From NCBI GenBank assembly GCA_043228905.1, contig JBHGNT010000007.1, positions 17,856,001-17,920,000 of the forward strand: 64,000 nucleotides of DNA. The letters are read 5' to 3'. The translations under genes were made by a program, and so were the position numbers. Origin of the DNA: Azolla caroliniana (Eukaryota > Plantae > Polypodiophyta). The notes beneath the pieces are model-generated. The model was not told the origin of the DNA and searched no databases. It saw only the letters and a program-made list of their open reading frames with translations. Positions 3,796-20,831 of the stretch are shown here, one piece after another; position 1 is the first letter of the stretch, and every line of letters starts with the position of its first letter.

Positions 3796-4123
3796 GCGGG
3801 AGCAGAAAATATAGGCAGAAGCACTAGCTTAGTCCATCGTAACTAGATAATCCTGTAAGGTCACCGGCCGTAGGCCGTGTTCTGTAATCCTTTTGGTGTT
3901 GCAGTAATATATCTGATTTGTGGCCATTTTGCTGCATGTGTCTGTGCTTTGGCTCATACTTATGATTTCAGCGCCGCCCACACCTATCAAGATCTCGCTA
4001 GTGTTTTATCTCTGATCATTTTCTCCTTCACGACGCCTCTGTTACGAGCCTTCACGTACCACACCCTTGGATACCGATAGCCGCAGGTCTATCGAAGGTG
4101 TTCACCCAAAGGAACGGGTAACA
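3796..4123 (+). repeat. 5' LTR of the Athila-like element (left end truncated)
   Basis: Matches 13457-13784 but lacks the TG start and the upstream segment present in the 3' copy. Confidence 0.88.
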
Positions 4124-4128
4124 CAATT

Positions 4129-4141
4129 TGGCATGCCCGGT
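4129..4141 (+). other. Primer binding site, tRNA-Arg type
   Basis: TGGCATGCCCGGT lies 5 nt after the LTR end. It matches the recalled plant tRNA-Arg PBS TGGCACGCCCGGT with one CpG transition. Confidence 0.75.
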
Positions 4142-4314
4142 TACAGTTGTGAGTGCACAACGAACTTCGTTGAAGGTAACCAGCAACTGCCGTTTCGGCG
4201 CCCCCTCGCACCACGAGGTCTCGGCCACCTGCTCGACGCCCTGAGCGAGTCGAAGGAACTTCCGACTCGGCGGTCACTGACCAATCCTTTCCCGAGAAAT
4301 CGGAGGCTTCCCCA

Positions 4315-7300
4315 GTGCAATCCTCGCCACCGGACACTCGATCGCGAGTTGATTCACCACCAAAAACCCCGTCGAGCCCTTCGGAGGTCAATCAACCGGA
4401 ACTAAACCCTTTCCGTGTGCTACCAGAAGACCCAGAGTACGACATCATGCCGTACCCTTACCCACGATACACCGACGGACCAAACGCGGAGTCACACATC
4501 CGTGCCTTCATATCCACGTGGCAGGCCAACCACTCAACGCACCGCCTCACGCCGGCCGAAATCGATGCCTCAAAGATTGCCGAGTTCACACTCTCCCTCG
4601 ATGGACCGGCCACACGATGGTACTCTCGCCTCGAAATAGGAGAGGCCACCACTTTCCAAATCGTGCGCACAAAGTTCCTTGACTTTTTCATGGTGAGGTG
4701 CCTAAACGGGAACTGCTCCGGCAATTCTTCTCTATATGCCAAGAACCGCACAAGAAGGTCGCGCAGTTCACGATCTAGTTCCAGGATCTCTACAGACAAG
4801 TGGTCGATGATGTCTTGGCACAACATATACCGGACACTTTCCTGTCCAGTTTACGAGAGCCTCTCCAAACGACTCTCGCACTTACAAATTTCGCCAACCA
4901 TACTATCGAACAAGTCATAGCGCGAGTTCTCGCCCTTGATCGGACCCAGCACGGCGCGGCCTTCTCGATGACATCCTTACAAAATGCTCTTCCCCAAGAG
5001 GACAATCGCTTTCGCCAAGCTCTCCAATGCCCGGCGTGTTCAGGATCAGGGCACCTGGCCCTCGAATGTCCCCACCGACCACAGTGTCCGATCTGTCAGT
5101 CTCGAGCTCACACTGTCGAGCAGTGCGAATATAATATGTTGAACCGCACAATGGCGGCACCGGTCTGCAAGATCGAGCCAAGAAATACATACTCTCGGCA
5201 AGACGAGCGATATGCCTACCGAGACCAGGATAACGACCGACCGCGATCCCCAGATCGACGGCGCCGAGACGACGACTACCGACGTGATGACCGTCGTGAT
5301 CACTATCGTGATGACCGGCACAATGATTATGCTTGATATGATGACGATCGTGATGACCGGTATGACCGACGGAACTCACGCAGTGATCGGCGAAACGGCA
5401 ACCACAACTCACGCAACAATAGAAGACATAACGACAACCGCCGACGGGATGCTCCTCAAAATGACTAGTGCAACTCCAACGCACCTCGGACCAACCCACT
5501 ACCAAACGAGACTGGGAATCAACAGCAACAGCTTCCACTCACAGACCGAGAGGACACCAGCAGCTCGGCCAACGTTACGTGTTTTTAATGTATCCAACCA
5601 GGCCACTACACCACGCAATGTCCAACAACCGACCGTGGCAAGGCACCCGCGGTGAACAGTATCATGTCCGATGTTCAAACCGTCACTACCCGGAGTAAAG
5701 CGCAGACTACACAGTGGCAAATCCAGGATGAAGTCTGTCAAGCAGCAAAAGAATGGATCGACACGGCCAATAAAAATAATGTCGTGCGCATGCAAACTGA
5801 CATGAGAGACGGGCCTAGTGGAGCACCACAAACCTCGGTACCATCCACGTCGTCAGAGGACGACCAGCTATGAGATGCTCTTACCAACTCCCACATCTCG
5901 CTGCCCCTACATAAGCTGTTACCACTCATGCCGAGATTTCGGGACACCCTGGCTGCACTACAGGCCAATACTAAGCCCATAACGCCACCGGTTCACCTCA
6001 CCGAACCAGGCACAGGTCCACCACTCATGGATTCTCAAAACCCAGCCGTGAAAATCATCATTAAAGGACAAGACTTGCATGGATGCATCATAGACGGCGG
6101 ATCTGGCATAAACGCTATTAGCGAAACAACTTGTCACAACCTCGGCCTAAATCAATTTGAACCGTGCCCCTTTTGGCTTCGGATGGCCGACACCCACTCC
6201 GTTCGCCCCATTGGTTTAATCCGCCACCTCGACTTCACACTCGGAGGCCACATGTTCACAATCTCGGCTGTCGTGCTAAGACTGGAGACCCAAGGCGCCT
6301 ACCCAATGTTACTAGGTAGACCATGGTTGCGTACAACGAATATCAAGCAGCATTGGCAACGCAACATGATCTCGTTTCGACGAGGCAAGACAAAGGTCCG
6401 AATTATCACGGAAGAACGCGTCCCCGCGGTCCTCAACGCTTCGCCGTTATACGCAGAGGGGGTCGATATGCTTGACGGTTTGGCCGATGAGGAGGTCGAT
6501 GACTTCCTAGATGATCATCCCTCTCTTCGAAATCAATGCCATACCAACCATCGAGCCACCTAAAGACGAGGAAGTCACAGAGGAATCACCACCCCAAGAT
6601 GAACCAGATCCAACCACAGTTGCTGAGCTACGCCATGCTCGGGATGCTTTCGAACGAGAACTCGCCATTTCACAACGAGTCAAAGCATCAATCCTGGAAA
6701 CAATAAACCTCGGCTCGGACGAGAATCCCCGTACGTTACAAATTGCCAATAATCTACCAACCGGAGAACGGGCATCCCTCGTACGATTGCTCACCGACTA
6801 CCAGGATGTTTTCGCTTGGTCTTACACCGATATGAAGGGGCTGGATCCTCAATACTACCAACATCAAATCCACCTCTTACCCGACACTCGGCCGGTTCAG
6901 CAGAGGCGCTACAGGATGAACCCCAACTACGCCGCTAAAGTCAAAGAGGAAATCGACAAACTACTCCGAGTGGCCTTCATTCGTCCTGTTAAACGGGCCA
7001 TGTGGTTGAGCCCGATCGTAGTAGTCCCAAAGAAGAACGGAAAAATCCGCGTCTGCGTTGACTATCGGAAGCTTAACGCGGCAACAGTCACTGACGATTT
7101 CCCTCTCCCCTTCACGGACAGCATCCTCGACACGGTAGTCGGCCACAAATGCTACAATTTCCTCGACGGGTTCAGCGGCTAAAACCAGATAAGAATGCAC
7201 CCGGAGGATCAGGAGAAAACAGCTTTCGTCATGGAATGGGGTGTTTTTGTAGCAGAAGTAATGATGTTCGGTCTAAAAACGGCGCCGGCTACGTTCCAGC

Positions 7301-9577
7301 GCATCATCACCGAAATCTTTCATGACTACATCCCGGCGTTCATGCAAGTCTTTCTCGACGATTTCGTCGTGTATGGCCATCGACGGGAATACATGACCCA
7401 GTTACGACTCTGCCTGGACCGATGTCGCCAAGCTCGATTGAGCTTAAACCCGGTGAAATGCGCATTCTTAGTCACCAGCGGTAACCTTCTCGGCCACATT
7501 GTCAGTCAAGAAGGCATCACTATGGACCCGGATAAAGTAAAGGCCATCCTGACCGCCTCCGCACCCTCGAACGCTAAGGCACTAAGCCGATTTTTGGGAC
7601 AGATCCGGTGGCACAGCCGAATGATACGACACCTGGCCGATTTCGCGACACCTTTACACGCGGCAATCCATCGCCTTCCCTTCCAATGGATGTCAATCGA
7701 GGACACGGCCTATCAGACCCTGAAACTAATGCTCTCACATGCCCCGGTGGTCCAGCCTCTGGTTTGGTCCGAACCGTTTCATGTCTTCGTAGATGCTTCG
7801 GACATCACCATCAGAAGTGCCCTGATGCAATGCACACCCCCGAATTGGTATAGGCCCGTGTACTACGCCAGCCGACGGCTCTCGACCGCGGAAAAGAATT
7901 ACTCCACCACCGAGCGGGAGGCCCTCGGTATGATTTATAGCATCAATAAATTCCGGCATTACCTCTTGGGCCGGAAGTTTACCATTCACGTGGATCACTC
8001 GGCCCTTCTTTATTTGGTCAATAAACAAGCCCTCACCGGACGGTTGGCTCGGTGGATGCTCCTACTCCAAGAGTTTGATTTCCAGATCAGCATCGACCCG
8101 GGGTACAATACGCCGTCGCCGACTACTTGAGCCATCTTGAGTCAGGGGAACCGGCGAAAACAACGTACGACAAGCTACCGGACGCCAGCCTATTTAACCT
8201 GACCACGATGCCAGACGATAACGAAGATGAATGGATCACGGAGATGACCCATTTTCTCACTACCGGTTTACCTCCCGAGCACATGCCCCTTGACGCGAGA
8301 AAATGCCTAGCAATGCATAGCTGGAATTTTTGCCTCGTCTCGGACATTCTCTACCACAAAGGCTCGGACGGCATATGGCGCCGAGCGATTCGGCAATTCG
8401 AGAAGAACGTCGTTCTTTAGGAAGCCCACCATGGAGTAGCTGGGGGGCACTACGCCGGGGATTCCACGGCAAGGAAAGTTTGGCAAAGCGGATTGTGGTG
8501 GCCGACAACGAAGAGAGACGCTCACGAGTTTTGCCGGCAGTGCGATTTGTGCCAACGATTGGGGCAACCAATGGAACAATCACGCATGCCACACGAGCCG
8601 ATTCTTCCATTGGACCCATTTCAAAAATGGGGTTTGGATTTTGTAGGCCCTTTCAAACCACCCGCGGCCCGTATAGGGAATAGGTATATTATCGTTGCCA
8701 TGGACTACTGCACCAAATGGGTCAAGGCTAAGGCACTCCGAGACAACACGGCGGCATCCACGGCTCAATTCGTGTACGAGCATCTTTGGTGCCGTTACGG
8801 ATGCCCAATTGAGCTCGTTAGTGACCAAGGTGGGCACTTCATCAATCATATAATACGTGAGCTTACACACCACTACGCGGTGGTACACAAGAAAAGCACA
8901 CCATACTACCCGCAGGCGAACGGCTTGTTGGAATCAACCAATAAAATCCTCCAAACCATACTAAAGAAGATCGTCAATGAAAACAGGACTGATTGGGATG
9001 ACAAACTCCAGAGCGCGTTGTGGGCGTATCGTACGACTTTCAAAACAAGCATCCAATCAACCCCCTTTCGAATGGCGTTCGGGTTAGAAGCCGTAATGCC
9101 CGTCGAGTTCCAAGTCCCGAGCCTCCGAGCCTCCGAGTTCAAATCAAAGCACGGCTCCCCGAGGCCCAATCCGAGCAATACCGGCTGGAACAACTCCTCG
9201 AACTCGGCGAAGACAGGATAGAGAGTATGGCCCAGCTCGAACAACACCAATGACAATGCAAGGCTTTCGTGGATCAACATCGAAATGGGCTGGAGAAGGA
9301 GCTCACCATCGGCAAACCGGTTCTTCTTTTTCAAACACGACTCGGGTCAATGCCGGGAAAATTAAGATTTTGGTGGACCGGTCCATTCTGGATTATCGAC
9401 GAGTTCAATGGGACGTTTCAGCTCGGCACACTCACCGGCGACACTGTCAAAAGCTGGGCCAATGGTTTCCGACTTCGACCATATCGAGGCACTACACCAC
9501 CCAACCCATTTACCGAGCCACACGGCACAAACGAGTTTCGGGAGACCCCCACGGAGGAGGCCACGTGTCCCCCTTAA
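4315..9577 (+). pseudogene. gag-pol of the Athila-like element, disrupted by stops and frameshifts
   Basis: Gag with zinc knuckles (CPACSGSGHLALEC). Protease IIDGGSGIN at 5928-6563. RT PIVVVPKKNGKIRVCVDYRKLN and VFLDDF at 6511-8130. RNase H HVFVDAS...NYSTTEREALGM. Integrase FQKWGLDFVGP...SDQGGHF...PYYPQANG at 8493-9221. GPY/F-like WTGPF at 9269-9577. Confidence 0.93.
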
Positions 9578-10096
9578 TAAGGACTCACCCACTTTTTGAA
9601 ATTACTAAAGTAGGTACTAGGATTAACCATAGTTTAGCCGCCGATTAGCTACACCTACACCACCCACCTAGGCACCCACAATTTAGGAGCACCCCTAGCC
9701 ACCTCTCATTTAGTACCTATTTAAGCACATGCAAAGCACTCAAAGCACCCCACTCACCTTCAGGACACGTGGCGCTAGTCACTTATTATGTCACCCACGA
9801 CTCAAAATCTTTAGGATTCGCTTCGGGCACAAAACCCTAGGAGTAAGTTACTAAAACCGTTTCCAAAACGCAGCACATACATAGAAGTTCATTATCGCTT
9901 CCAACCTCCATCGCTCCCAAGCTCAGAAGCCCCTTCTTGCTCTCATCGCTCTAAACGCTCTTGCTCTCAAGCCCTCTTTCGCTCTCATAGCCCCTCTGCC
10001 GAGCTTTCCCTTCCTGTTGTTCCTCCTCTGTCTCGCCCTCGCCTCATCACTCTTCCTCACTCTTCCACACAGTCAAACCCCGTCTCCATCTCCACC

Positions 10097-13000
10097 ATGC
10101 CTCTTACCGCTTCAACAGAAACCCGCGCCTGGCTCCAGGAACGAGGAATGGGCGGTTACCTGAAGATCATCGATGCCCCCGCGCACCCGGATGCCCAAGG
10201 AGTGGCTAAACATATTTGTCCCGAAGCCATCACCAACAACGTGCTTCGGGCTGCTTTGGACCTGCAACGGGGAGGGGACCATGAGGTCGACATACCCCCG
10301 GCATCAAAGCTGAAAGAGTACTTCGGTGAGTACTCAGCCTCATGGAAGGCATATCGCACGTATGGCGGTCCCAACAGAGCTTTCGGGGAGATTGCTCGTA
10401 TATTGATGGAGTATGCGTTCGTGCATACGAACCCGACGAGCATGTCGTAGAACAAGGCAGCCATCATCATCAGCGTGTATGAAGGAAACAGAGTCGATTG
10501 GGGAATCATCACAGGCGAAGGACTCCGCGTCGCCTTAGCCTCATACCAGTCAGGTAAGAAGATGTTGTCTGTTCTTACCCACTTTTTGATGGTTCTATAC
10601 CCACCCTCTTCTCTTCCTTCCCCTCGGACACTCACGTCCCCACCACCACCACGAAGGCAGAGAGAGAAATTGGTTGCCATCAACCACGAAGCATGGGAGG
10701 AGCCCATATCGCCTTCACCTCCTGCCACCGATCAAAACCCCGCATCGGCACCACCACCCACCCAACCCCAACAAAAAAGGGCAGTTTCCGAGACTTGCCA
10801 AGAATAGGAGGAGGAGATAGCCACGGAGGACAACACGGCAGACGATGTCACCATTCGACAGCCAACGCCGCGCCCCTCGGTAACTCCCCCAGGGCCTAGC
10901 CCACGCCCCAACACACAGCTGGCAACACCACCACGACCCCAGAAAAGGAAGCAGGTGGAGGAAACGACACTACCGGCCCCGGAACCCCAAACCCAGCCGA
11001 GCAAGAGAAGACGACTCAACCGCGAGTCCTCGGCAGAACAGAAAGAGCCACAACAGGAGCAAGCCTTAGTTGTCAGCCAGAGCAACCTAGCCATCATCCC
11101 TGAGGAGGCATCGCTGAACCAGGGAAAGATCGAGCATGGGCAGACAACGCAGATCTCGGAGGATGAAGTCCTCAGTTATAAAGACCTCCCTACGGAGGCT
11201 TACGAATTTAGTGCACTCCTACGCCTCGGTACGACATTTGTGCTGGTCGACTTCCTCGCTAGAGCCCAAGTCACGGCAACCGCTCGAATGGCGGAAGAGC
11301 ATGCCGAAACAAAAATGATTCAACGCGCGCTATTAGGTGAAATTGAGCCCCAAGACGACAGGGCTTTACAAAAAATAGGGAGGAAGAAGTAGGCAAAACG
11401 GGCCACTCTCCTCATGGAGGTCCCCAAGTTGAACACGGCCCTTATCGAGGCATATAGGGACCTGGATCGCACTACGTGAGCAGCCAAAGACATGGCCCGA
11501 AAGATAAAAACAACCCAAAAACAGGCTAAGGTGGCTACAGAATTATGGCACGATGCGAAACAGAAACTGGCAGCCTGGGAGCAAAACCGGCCGGAACAAC
11601 AACTCTTGAGCCTTCCGGCCACGACCACCAAGGCCCTCCCAGCCCCTCCACGCATAACAATGATAGATGAAAGCACCGTCACGGATTCAATCCTGACGAT
11701 CCAGGCCAGCACACTAACAGACTCGTTACAAATGGTCGATGCCTGCACAACAACCGAGGCGGCCACGCCCATGGAGAAGACCGAGATACCACCCCCTCGT
11801 CCACCCAAGGAGGTGGCAACCCAGACAGAACCCCCACTCCGAGATTACCGAGCGGAGCTTAAAGAAGAACAACGGCGGACCGAGAGACACGAACAACGGC
11901 ATGAAGAGGCCATGGGTCGCTTAAAAGAAGAAGCTTCCAAACAGATGGCCGAGATTAGAGCCCAAGCCAACCAAAGGATACACGAGCAGAACGAAGCACT
12001 AGGCCGGGTACAAGCGCAAGCCGCGGGCAAAGAAGCAGAACTCAAAAGCAAGCTGGAGGAATACACGGCCACAGTGGCAGAGAAAGAGAAGGAGGTCCTA
12101 GACCTACAGGCCGCGCTCGACAATGCAAAAGACTGGAACCACCGGCAGGAGGAAAGAAATCGCCAACGGGAGGAGAGAATGATCGCGGAGAATGCCGAGC
12201 TACAGAGTCAGCGTACGACCCTTAAAGAAATGGCTGACGAGTTTTTCATCAAATGCAAGCTACTTTCAAAGCAAAAAGACGAATTATCTGATTCCTACTT
12301 CGCCCTACAAGAAGAGAGAATCGTCGAACGGGAACAAGTCCGGGCCGCGTGTCAAAAAGAATGGGAGAAAGCTACCGAAGAGCTCACCAAGCATTACGAG
12401 CAGTCTATCCAGCTCGTAACCGCGGACGCAAAGAACACTCAAGCCACCTATGAACTACTCGCAAAGAAGCTTCAGGCCGAGGTCAACGGCTTAAAAGAGG
12501 AATTGGCAGCCGTTTGAGCACAGCCCGGCATGGATGAGACACGCATCAGAATACTGATCGAGAAACAGCGCCAGCACCTCACCAAAAAGGTCGAGGAAAC
12601 ATTAAGTCGCGCAGGAGAAGAATGGGCAGCCCAAGCTACCGAATTGCATATTTTACGCGCCGACGCCGAGAACCGACGGAAGGAGGGCCGCCGCTTTTAC
12701 AAAATGGACGAAGCCAACATACAAAACCTGCGTGCAGATTTAACCGAGGATTACCAATCCTTGGCAAAATCTCACACCGCGGCAATCGAGCAAATACTGG
12801 AGGACTTCAATGACGATTAGATGTTGTTTCGCCTGGAAGCAGAAGCCTTCGAACAAGAACGACTCGCAGCCATCCCAACCAACCCTCCAACGGCCATAGA
12901 GCAGAAGGAAGAACCTCCCAGCGAGGAGATCACGGACACGGCACAGGAAGAACTCGCCCCGGCCAACAGACCTCCCGAGGACGCCCACACGGTACCAGAT

Positions 13001-13192
13001 CCAGTCGAAGTAGAGGTCAGCGCCCTCGAACCCACACCACCACTAGAACAATCGGCCGCACCTGAGGCGGACGCCCGAGAGGATATGACACGCCCGGACC
13101 AAACTCAACCCCCCGCACCGACAGTCCAACCAGACCACCCTGCCACCAGCCCGGACCCCGAAAACATCCTCGACATCTTAAAAGAGGAATGA
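10097..13192 (+). pseudogene. Extra sense ORF3 (env-position) of the Athila-like element, ~1030 codons with long coiled coil
   Basis: ORF-track pieces starting at 10097, 10475, 10955, 11492, 12530 and 12821 are all in one frame, separated only by single TAG/TGA codons. Globular N-terminus, Pro-rich linker, Glu/Lys/Gln-rich heptad region and acidic Pro-rich tail. Confidence 0.85.
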
Positions 13193-13201
13193 AACGAGGA
13201 T

Positions 13202-13288
13202 CACGCCTAAAAGGCAATTTTTGTAATGTTGTTAGTATTTTGTAAGTCGTGGGTCCGACGGACAAGGTCCTGTCCCACGGGCGTGCCA
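13202..13288 (+). other. Degenerate tRNA-Arg-derived sequence with encoded CCA inside the retrotransposon 3' UTR
   Basis: GCCTAAAAGGC (D-arm remnant), GTGGGTCCGA...GTCCCAC (T-arm with a 13-nt insert) and GGGCGTGCCA (acceptor 3' strand plus CCA). It is complementary to the element's own PBS. The comparison uses a tRNA-Arg(UCU) sequence recalled from memory. Confidence 0.65.
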
Positions 13289-13290
13289 GG

Positions 13291-13784
13291 TGTTGTCCAG
13301 AGGACAGAAATGTAAAATTAGGAAATTAGCAAACGGCGGTAGTGTAACCGAGTAGGAAAGAACGCCAGCGAGTGCCGAGTCCGAGTATCACGGGCCACTG
13401 ACGGCTCGGCTGTGTATTAGGGGAAACGTTATTTAAACGAGGTCCAGTACCTCAGAGCGGGAGCAGAAAATATAGGCAGAAGCACTAGCTTAGTCCATCG
13501 TAACTAGATAATCCTGTAAGGTCACCGGCCGTAGGCCGTGTTCTGTAATCCTTTTGGTGTTGCAGTAATATATCTGATTTGTGGCCATTTTGCTCCATGT
13601 GTCTGTGCTTTGGCTCATACTTATGATTTCAGCGCCACCCACGCCTATCAAGATCTCGCTAGTGTTTTATCTCTGATCATTTTCTCCCTCACGACGCCTC
13701 TATTACGAGCCTTCACGTACCACGCCCTTGGATACCGATAGCCGCAGGTCTATCGAAGGTGTTCACCCAAAGGAACGGGTAACA
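13291..13784 (+). repeat. 3' LTR of the Athila-like element (start ambiguous: 13291, 13311 or 13343)
   Basis: 13457-13784 matches the 5' LTR and ends ...GGGTAACA. Three candidate TG starts cannot be resolved because the 5' LTR is truncated. Confidence 0.8.
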
Positions 13785-18775: not shown

Positions 18776-18878
18776 TTGCTCTGTTTGCTCAATGGCTCTG
18801 TTCCTAACAGACAAGCTCTGTCCCTAAGAGAGAAACTCTGAGAGAGAGAGAGAGACAGAGAGAGAAGACAGGAACACC

Positions 18879-20831
18879 ATGCAAAGGCCAATTACAGATG
18901 ACATTGCCAGGATCCTGAGGCAGCACGCTAAGGTAAGAGACCTTCGGAACACACACACCCTGCATTCTTTGATCATTGAAAGTGGAGCAGAGTCTTCCCT
19001 CTCCCTCAGAGGCTCCCTTATACATGCTTACATGAAATGTGGATGTATAGAGAGCTCCTGTAGTGTGTTCGGCTATGGTGGAGAAGAAGATCGAGATGTG
19101 TTTCTTTGGACATGTTTGATTACTGGGTATGCACAGCATGGATTTGGCCTCCAAGCTATTTCCCTGTGCAAACAAATGCAAGTGGAAGGTATTCTTCTAA
19201 ACAATTTCACATTCTCAGCTGTGCTTAAGGCTTGTTCTATCTTACCAAGTCTTAATACAGGTAAACAAATGCATTCTACCATTATTGAATCAGGCTACAG
19301 ATCAGATGTTACCATCGGAAATGTGCTTATCGATATGTATACAAAATCGGGGTCAATGGAATATGCGCTTGTAGTGTTTAAGGAAATGCATGGTAAGGAT
19401 GTTGTTTCATGGAGTGTGATGATCTCTGGATGTATTCTCAACCAATGTTGGGAAAAAGCAATCGTGTTGTTTGATGATATGCATCAAGAAGAGATTGATC
19501 CAAATAACTATACGTATGTGAGTATTCTTAAAGCATATGGAAGTTTGAATGTTTTGGAAGGAATCCGGAAAGTTCATAGTGAGGTTTTGGAAAAGGTTTG
19601 GGATTCAGATGTGTTTGTAAGAAGTGCACTTGTGGACGCATACATAAAATGTGGCAACTTAAGGGACGGGCAAGAAGTTTTCAATGGAATGTCAGAGCAA
19701 GATCTTGTGTCTTCGAATGCGATGATTGATGGGTATGCTCAAAATGCACTTTGTAGTGAAGCATCAACCCTCTTTATGGTCATGCAACATAGAGGATTGT
19801 TCCCAGATAAGGTAACATTTGCGAGTATGCTCAAAGCATGTGCATCAATATCTTCTTTTCATAGAGGCAAGCAAATTCATGCCCAAATCTTAGAATCTCA
19901 TGTAAAGTGTGACCTTTTTATGGGAAGCACTCTTATTGACATGTATGTGAAGTGCAAGAGAATTGATGATGCCCAGAAAGTGTTCGATGCAATGCTTGTT
20001 CGAGATGTAGTCATGTGGAATTGCTTACTTACTGGATATGCCCAAGAAGTTTATGGTAGGGAGGCCATCTCTCAGTTCATACAAATGCTTCATGAAGGCA
20101 TTGGTGCCGATGTTGTCACATATGTGATCATTCTTAAAGCATGTATGGAAATCACATCACTCGAGTGGGGAAAGCAAGTTCATGCTCAACTGGTGAAGAG
20201 AAAAAATTTGGAATCCAATTTGATCATAAGAAGCAGCCTTGTGGATATGTATGCTAAATGTGGAAATATAATGAATGCTCGTGAAGTGTTCGATAGGACG
20301 GCAGAGCGAGATGTAGTCTCTTGGAATTCCATGATTAGTGCATATGCACAACGAGGTCTCAACAAAGAAGTTTATAGATTATTTGAGTTGATGCAGAAGG
20401 ACGGTTTGAATCCAACCGAGGTGACACTTGGTTGTGTTCTTTCTGCATGTAGACATGGTGGCCTTGTTGATGATGGATGCAAGTATTTGGAGACATTAAG
20501 CTTAACCTATGCCATTGAACCTACAGCAGAGCACTTTAGCTGCATTATCGACCTCTTTGCCCGTGTAGGCCGGTTGGACGAGGCAACAGATTTTTTATCT
20601 AAATTGCCATTCAAACCTAGAATCGAACCTTGGATAGCTTTGCTTGGGGCTTGCAAAACACATGGTAATGTCGGTGTAGGGGAACATGCATTTGAACGCA
20701 TTGAACACCTTGTGCCTGGACATATGGGAGCTACCTTGCTTCTTTCAAATTTGTATGCCGATGCTAAAAGATGGGATGCAGTAACCTCAATGAGATACAA
20801 GCTGCAGGATGGAATGGTGACTGTGGGGTGA
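18879..20831 (+). CDS. PLS-class pentatricopeptide repeat protein with E domain and no DYW (probable organellar RNA-editing specificity factor), 650 aa
   Basis: Uninterrupted ORF with repeated P-L-S motifs (DVVSWNSMISAY, LVDMYAKCG, TFASMLKAC), terminal VLSACRHGGLVDDG / HFSCIIDLFARVGRLDEA, and E domain WIALLGACKTHGN...LLSNLYA. Confidence 0.95.
   Translation: MQRPITDDIARILRQHAKVRDLRNTHTLHSLIIESGAESSLSLRGSLIHAYMKCGCIESSCSVFGYGGEEDRDVFLWTCLITGYAQHGFGLQAISLCKQMQVEGILLNNFTFSAVLKACSILPSLNTGKQMHSTIIESGYRSDVTIGNVLIDMYTKSGSMEYALVVFKEMHGKDVVSWSVMISGCILNQCWEKAIVLFDDMHQEEIDPNNYTYVSILKAYGSLNVLEGIRKVHSEVLEKVWDSDVFVRSALVDAYIKCGNLRDGQEVFNGMSEQDLVSSNAMIDGYAQNALCSEASTLFMVMQHRGLFPDKVTFASMLKACASISSFHRGKQIHAQILESHVKCDLFMGSTLIDMYVKCKRIDDAQKVFDAMLVRDVVMWNCLLTGYAQEVYGREAISQFIQMLHEGIGADVVTYVIILKACMEITSLEWGKQVHAQLVKRKNLESNLIIRSSLVDMYAKCGNIMNAREVFDRTAERDVVSWNSMISAYAQRGLNKEVYRLFELMQKDGLNPTEVTLGCVLSACRHGGLVDDGCKYLETLSLTYAIEPTAEHFSCIIDLFARVGRLDEATDFLSKLPFKPRIEPWIALLGACKTHGNVGVGEHAFERIEHLVPGHMGATLLLSNLYADAKRWDAVTSMRYKLQDGMVTVG

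Follow-up and report, generated by a model that had tools for sequence, protein, structure and literature searches.

How does an LTR retrotransposon begin its plus strand when the place of its polypurine tract (PPT) appears to be taken by part of a tRNA in sense orientation? The question is raised by a degenerate Ty3/gypsy element, with reverse transcriptase (RT), RNase H and integrase, in a stretch of 64,000 nucleotides (the window) of the Azolla caroliniana genome (G000, 523 Mb). The rule given in reviews is that a tRNA primes the minus strand and an element-encoded PPT the plus strand, and the exceptions known, in the accessible text of PMC5371799, are on the minus side only. The first-pass annotation of the locus, made from the letters alone, had described at 13202-13290 a CCA-ended copy of tRNA-Arg(UCU), derived from the mature tRNA, lying 2 nt before the LTR in a mirror image of the usual primer-binding site (PBS) geometry and possibly replacing the PPT, and had offered four uses for it. 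The letters that it quoted are correct and these parts of its description hold on the evidence given below, where a tRNA-type plus-strand priming site is also the best supported of the four uses, through junctions that carry host tRNA.

The element, the features of which are listed in Table 1, has TG...CA LTRs with target-site duplication, the order gag, RT, RNase H, integrase, and a tRNA PBS, as is characteristic of Ty3/gypsy. There is no Pfam match for its protease, and the nearest named relative of the RT–RNase H region is an Adiantum protein (53%). Upstream of the partial 5' LTR there is unrelated sequence, on a minus-strand copia-like element, and the missing 166 nt were not found within the 10 kb preceding the window. 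The PBS follows the LTR end after a 5-nt spacer (4124-4128). A search of the host's own genome returned 41 matches, 11 of which begin at query positions 191-194, that is at about 13291. All of the 5' LTRs examined (11/11) begin at the position equivalent to 13291, with unrelated flank on one side and the PBS on the other. A perfect 5 nt target-site duplication is present in six of seven paired elements. The LTR is therefore 13291-13784, which rules out an alternative start at 13311 and places the motif inside the element, where a PPT would be.

Table 1. Features of the retrotransposon, numbered from the first nucleotide of the window
Feature	Position	Strand	Remarks
5' LTR	3796..4123	+	98% repeat of 13457-13784; first 166 nt absent from window copy
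Minus-strand PBS	4129..4141	+	13 nt complementary to tRNA-Arg(UCU) 3' end; one G-U in window copy
gag-pol (gag, protease-like, RT, RNase H, integrase)	4180..9577	+	Degenerate, with stops and frameshifts; domain order read from unbroken relative
ORF3 (extra sense ORF)	9815..13192	+	Broken in window copy; no Pfam family
Small GC hairpin resembling tRNA D-arm	13202..13217	+	Subgroup-specific, outside conserved unit
tRNA-Arg(UCU) nt 49-58 in sense orientation, covering the 5' strand of the T-stem plus the T-loop	13249..13258	+	
13-nt insert between tRNA A58 and G59	13259..13271	+	Covarying hairpin, reaching into flanking bases
Sense copy of tRNA nt 59-76	13272..13288	+	One C missing; CCA-ended; minus-strand complement is the predicted plus-strand primer-binding site
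2-nt spacer, CCA to LTR	13289..13290	+	
3' LTR, 494 nt, TG...CA	13291..13784	+	

Several further observations were made on the element and its surroundings. ORF3 (also L118:6974-9913) is about 980 aa long when open, with 35–43% conservation of its N-terminal part between families and a tail that appears coiled-coil by eye; weak Atlas leads (<0.9) to Transposase_32 and ATHILA clusters are leads only. The spacers from LTR end to PBS are family-specific and 4–11 nt long (here, and in L083, L088, L092 and L114), which implies long cDNA overhangs for integrase to trim. At 18828-20831 the window has a 667-aa open frame that is PPR-like by eye.

There is no PPT before the 3' LTR. Only 10 of the last 20 nt are purines, and the longest purine run within 100 nt is 6, so that the element does not have the purine-rich tract of a canonical PPT-primed element. 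LTR elements of other lineages nested in the examined loci served as a control: G-rich or purine-rich tracts are present in all four of the pairs resolved at both ends (seven were seen).

On alignment, what stands in this place is a partial sense copy of tRNA-Arg(UCU), nt 49-76, including the CCA and with one base missing. The first segment matches the tRNA at 9 of its 10 positions and the second runs through nt 59-76 but for the one C, ending 2 nt upstream of the 3' LTR; the 13-nt hairpin is inserted directly after A58. In the accessible text of PMC13191261, m1A58 is the usual stop for RT when a primer tRNA is copied. The local alignment score of the motif against tRNA-Arg(UCU) is 48.5, where the maximum from shuffles is 38.5 (0/2000 as high), and this tRNA scores highest among the 13 tRNA types compared. 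The host has tRNA-Arg(UCU) genes in which CCA is not encoded (L062, L066, L067, L068, L072), in keeping with an origin from the mature tRNA. Tandem arrays of tRNA-Lys(UUU) genes on C5, with a period of about 368 nt, and a cluster of tRNA-Ile(UAU) genes on C2 were also seen (L031, L032, L038, L039, L048).

The likeness to a tRNA does not extend to a whole molecule. ARAGORN and Rfam called no tRNA in the motif stretch, and the folding energy of the 87-nt stretch is no better than that of shuffles (z -0.97, such z-scores being uninformative). A candidate extension of identity upstream of the motif, to tRNA nt 37-48, was dropped, being present in 25/132 rows as it is in a control window (25/132). 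Of the 36 rows whose LTR start resembles that of the window copy, 11 have the D-stem-like piece (13205-13215), which is absent from the other 96; neither D-stem nor acceptor 5' strand is conserved across the rows, and in many families the ORF3 stop directly precedes the T-arm copy. Since these stems are limited to one subgroup, there is no full tRNA mimic: no full tRNA or tRNA-like cloverleaf, in which D-arm and anticodon arm accompany a paired acceptor stem, is present, and the proposal of a cloverleaf or RNase P/Z substrate is not supported.

The motif is the mark of a lineage and not of one copy, as the first-pass annotation had required of its own reading. In the host genome there are 2,143 occurrences of the core 15-mer and none of its reversed control. 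Within the window's family the motif is present at all 28 of the 3'-end loci, which were selected with a query containing it, and 26 of these end in GCCA. When elements were selected by integrase only, 14 of the 20 copies examined had an LTR start within 7 kb, and all 14 carried the motif. At the first 20 of the listed places of the core 15-mer there were 22 matches; every one has the insert, and they precede six or more distinct LTR starts. When the search was tied to the hairpin and the LTR, with the tail left free, it gave 665 matches (control 0), and in 100 of these, read by eye, the tRNA tail was at the expected spacing in 99 and ended in GCCA in 92. The motif thus precedes many unrelated LTRs, and the G000 elements that bear it have 71–84% identity to the window integrase over the aligned parts. 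Short elements without pol retain it, including non-coding ones of 3–4 kb, as do the non-autonomous elements L122, L131 and L132 (2–4 kb), with a 5-nt spacer, and two of these three show an Arg(UCG) PBS. In metagenome contigs there are at least 124 matches; among the matches listed, 123 precede LTR-like starts and one (L221) is a chance match, and as the matching contigs are all from one assembly series they do not speak to a range beyond close relatives. Viral contigs gave no match by pattern or by protein. The motif is real and conserved, and most likely functional.

The conserved unit is 13249-13290. Covariation was assessed in 46 non-redundant rows (150 instances reduced to 47, with one truncated row removed). 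In the insert helix there are changes on both sides at all six pairs, amounting to 34 cells, compared with 9.5 in shuffles (0/500 as high) and lower values in slid controls. The T-stem-like helix has a compensatory change at none of its five pairs, a lack that is partly built in, because its 3' side is fixed by the search pattern in most of the 46 rows, which are also related to one another. This suggests that it is identity to the tRNA, and not the T-stem fold, that is under conservation. RNAalifold recovered only three insert pairs and a weak tail helix, and wobble pairs gave no signal for the strand on which folding occurs (19 G-T vs 16 A-C cells). The insert is 13 nt long in 94/126 rows, and G59 is kept as G in 93/126. 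The hairpin alters G59 in some families and the tail differs at tRNA nt 67-69 in some, differences that imply a cost in pairing with the tRNA.

The copied tRNA is that of the element's own PBS only in part of the lineage. In the window's family the last 10 nt of the motif are complementary to the PBS, and UCU PBSs are found there and in elements on C1, C6, C10 and C16. Twelve elements were read upstream, six of which gave an LTR pair with a PBS; all six PBSs fit tRNA-Arg(UCG), genes for which were found in the host, and the UCU motif is kept nevertheless. As an Arg(UCG) PBS cannot pair with a UCU motif, the motif is not a general partner of its own PBS. The description of the motif as a copy of the element's "own primer tRNA" is accordingly true of the window's family, while several others have an Arg(UCG) PBS with a UCU copy, and pairing with the PBS or shielding of it, also proposed there, does not hold as a general role.

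At the PBS side, the RTs of these elements copy the minus-strand primer to 18 nt or beyond (L073, L074, L061, L069, L071), which would make the copying of a retained tRNA in character for them. Extended PBSs were noted in L073 and L074, of the window's family, and in L061, L069, L070, L071 and L143; that in L073 is 18 nt, while others reach the anticodon loop or beyond, and a jump to an internal position follows, producing internally deleted elements. The tRNA+CCA copies in L061, L069, L070 and L071 were rejected as sense copies, being ordinary PBSs with RT read-through on the evidence of LTR pairs (of RT orientation for L070); L139, L143 and L144 were read likewise from LTR ends alone and were not counted as sense copies. 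In L150:1-150 (G000:C597) there is a fold-back product, consisting of an LTR end, an 18-nt Arg(UCG) PBS, a sense tRNA 3' half with CCA and an inverted LTR end, and such a product is a possible model for the first entry of a sense tRNA copy into an element. In L339 (G000:C13:9108594) an 18-nt PBS copy runs into the complement of the motif hairpin, which looks as if a second strand transfer had landed on the motif.

The junctions that carry host tRNA bear on the function of the motif. A genome-wide search for the true tRNA end, in which the missing C is present, followed by 2 nt and TGTT gave 17 matches, seven of which represent four independent events at confirmed LTR starts. Two others were dropped as ordinary motifs with one extra base, as were eight without a confirmed LTR start, four of these being on the reverse strand of a related LTR. 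In all four events it is the host tRNA-Arg(UCU), not the element's copy, that is joined through its CCA and a 2-nt spacer to the LTR start, and all four elements keep their own, different motif before a 3' LTR. Junctions carrying an element's own motif were found in none of the 17 matches of one pattern search, and another such search gave no match, these searches covering some LTR ends only and gaps of up to 30 nt.

The event on C16 is in a full element with a 5 nt duplication and three LTRs at its 5' end. Both of its junctions read LTR end, the family's PBS-side spacer, an exact 18 nt of tRNA (G59-A76), the family's 2-nt spacer and LTR start, whereas the motif that the element itself carries ahead of its 3' LTR agrees with the tRNA over no more than 8 nt. 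On C20, in an element with an Arg(UCG) PBS, a partial LTR is followed by an exact 18 nt of a different UCU isodecoder (L049) and then by the 5' LTR, and the element's own motif is intact at the 3' LTR. In the C2 event, an element with an Arg(UCG) PBS has its 5' LTR preceded by about 57 nt of tRNA, an arrangement that local duplication has brought to three copies; on C6, some 62 nt of tRNA, with three changes, lie in a junction of LTR end and LTR start that is older. The C16 and C20 copies end at G59 and so stop exactly before A58, and C16 and C6 are LTR-end/LTR-start junctions that also keep the PBS-side spacer. On C16, C20 and C2 the true tRNA precedes an LTR that is followed by PBS and gag, which is where a retained plus-strand primer would be copied. 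For C20 and C2 the UCU tRNA is not the minus-strand primer, as both have an Arg(UCG) PBS. Separately, L085-L087 (G000:C2:12.00-12.03 Mb) form a young tandem array, 99.9% identical over 6.9 kb, in which a 640-nt segment precedes the true tRNA copy.

A sense tRNA to the left of U3 would need an inversion if it came from the minus-strand primer, and two of the four events show a tRNA other than that primer; for these reasons the complement of the motif is read as a second primer-binding site. On this genomic evidence, the host tRNA-Arg(UCU) probably anneals to the motif complement on minus-strand DNA and primes the plus strand from it, and the sense tRNA at the left end of U3 would be the product of minus-strand completion copying the tRNA still attached to plus-strand strong-stop DNA. 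This would appear to be a plant LTR lineage without a PPT in which host tRNAs prime both strands; in several families the minus strand would start from UCG on RNA and the plus strand from UCU on DNA, the hairpin at the m1A58 position shaping the second primer complex, and we consider this the likely state of affairs.

In the sequence of steps proposed, either Arg(UCU) or Arg(UCG), depending on the family, would start the minus strand from the ordinary PBS. After the first strand transfer, RT would copy U3 and the motif while RNase H clears the RNA, and tRNA-Arg(UCU) would pair with the minus-strand DNA through nt 76-67 and 65-59, probably also 57-49; the hairpin would be looped out where m1A58 lies, and the Gag zinc knuckle would perhaps assist the annealing. 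RT would then extend A76 over the 2-nt spacer and the LTR. The tRNA would normally be cut off and the spacer trimmed by integrase; where the tRNA is not removed, minus-strand completion would copy it to m1A58 or further, giving the junctions described above. The means by which the tRNA–DNA hybrid could escape RNase H may lie in the bulge, 11 nt from the 3' end, or in the hairpin, 18 nt from it; more speculatively, these two may either protect the hybrid in this way or conceal the copy, in the RNA, from the PBS.

Some of the evidence goes against this reading. A tRNA on DNA is a substrate of RNase H, and the differences at G59 or nt 67-69 would cost some families pairing with the tRNA. There are only four events with host tRNA at the junction, and the same junctions could be produced if the minus strand copied a leftover primer of element RNA and then switched, by homology, to the real tRNA. 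The main rival to host tRNA priming, and an unlikely one in our estimation, is built on such a primer, the self-encoded one among the four uses first suggested: the motif in the element RNA would refold behind RT into an RNase H-resistant stem-loop, the 10-nt tail of which stays on the minus-strand DNA, is cut after the CCA and primes as a PPT does, with the true tRNA entering junctions now and then, by substitution or by a template switch. This route dispenses with a second tRNA, the motif is exactly at the PPT position, the insert covaries, and in some families T-stem and insert form one bulged hairpin with a free tail, the motif RNA folding as such a neat bulged stem-loop in two of the three families tested. 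The four informative junctions, however, all carry true tRNA and none the element's letters, which would require the extra template-switching step in every event, and two of them occur where the family would otherwise not need Arg(UCU); moreover, compensatory change is absent from the T-stem, which some young families (L096) have in broken form.

That the host tRNA primes the plus strand on antisense element RNA, rather than on minus-strand DNA, is improbable. The reverse strand does have PBS geometry, the site reading there as an ordinary LTR, spacer and PBS, and such priming would account for the same junctions and avoid the RNase H problem, but antisense RNA would then have to be packaged along with the sense RNA in all of the families, and no ORF was noted on the antisense strand. 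It is very improbable that the motif serves instead to pair with its own PBS, for circularization or for shielding from 3' tRNA fragments, or as a tRNA-like processing signal, with plus-strand priming elsewhere. The complementarity to the PBS and the D-arm-like hairpin in the window's subgroup are what such roles would use, and L339 resembles a PBS copy mis-annealed to the motif; yet families with an Arg(UCG) PBS retain the UCU motif, the cloverleaf is not conserved, and the fixed short spacer to the LTR start, with the host tRNA at the junctions, points to priming at the motif. A neutral relic, left by an old reverse-transcription accident or by an opposite-strand element, is scarcely credible and largely refuted by copy number (2,143 exact core copies), by spread before diverged LTRs and by covariation, the motif being kept with compensatory changes while the ORF3 end and LTRs diverge, and kept in non-coding elements, even though fold-back products with sense tRNA do arise here (L150) and its origin may well have been an accident.

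If priming by the host tRNA is confirmed, this is a new form of LTR-element reverse transcription. A textbook rule of retroelement copying would be broken by a second way to start the plus strand, in a thriving lineage with thousands of copies; RT would start from a tRNA on a DNA template without that tRNA being destroyed, and transposition would be tied to two host tRNAs. Elements of this kind would be missed in part, or placed in the wrong orientation, by annotation tools that look for a PPT. No description of an inverted PBS or of a tRNA-primed plus strand in LTR elements was found in a search of the main texts of the open full-text literature.

Like the PPT of retroviruses and LTR retrotransposons, which in the accessible text of PMC5371799 and PMC13191261 sits just before U3 and defines the left end of the cDNA, the motif lies at the U3 boundary. 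It differs in not being purine-rich but a tRNA copy with a hairpin, and in that the primer would be a host tRNA, not a piece cut from the element's RNA. Pairing that is split between the acceptor end and T-arm of one tRNA is shared with the HIV-1 primer activation signal and the ASLV U5–T-arm pairing, as presented in the available parts of PMC13191261, and with the bipartite PBS of Ty1 and Ty3 in those of PMC5371799, as is, in the same portions of these sources, the 18-nt copy ending at m1A58. The sites described there are antisense to the tRNA, on RNA, and serve the minus strand, whereas the motif is sense on RNA, is before U3 and replaces the PPT; in Ty3 the 3' segment is within U3 and a PPT is kept (PMC5371799, in the portion available).

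Among plant elements, the OTA non-chromoviruses Athila and Tat (Neumann et al. 2019, PMC6317226), so far as the accessible text describes them, share with the window's lineage the gypsy domain order, the extra 3' sense ORF, the 5 nt duplication and a tRNA-type PBS. Most elements are there stated to have a PPT, and the word 'fern' is absent from the main text of that paper as accessible. The window's lineage differs in that Pfam finds neither the additional RNase H nor the Athila ORF-1: the archaeal-type RNase H that defines Tat has no Pfam match in the 1952-aa open polyprotein frame or in ORF3, and there is no chromodomain by Pfam in the polyprotein of the unbroken relative. The element is an ordinary gypsy element in its proteins and OTA-like in its layout.

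Plus strands are also primed without a PPT in hepadnaviruses, which use primer translocation, with a piece of viral RNA as the primer. In retroviruses, 2-LTR junctions that have kept a primer show that junctions record the primers used. In the elements described here, by comparison with both systems, the letters recorded at the junctions are those of a host tRNA.
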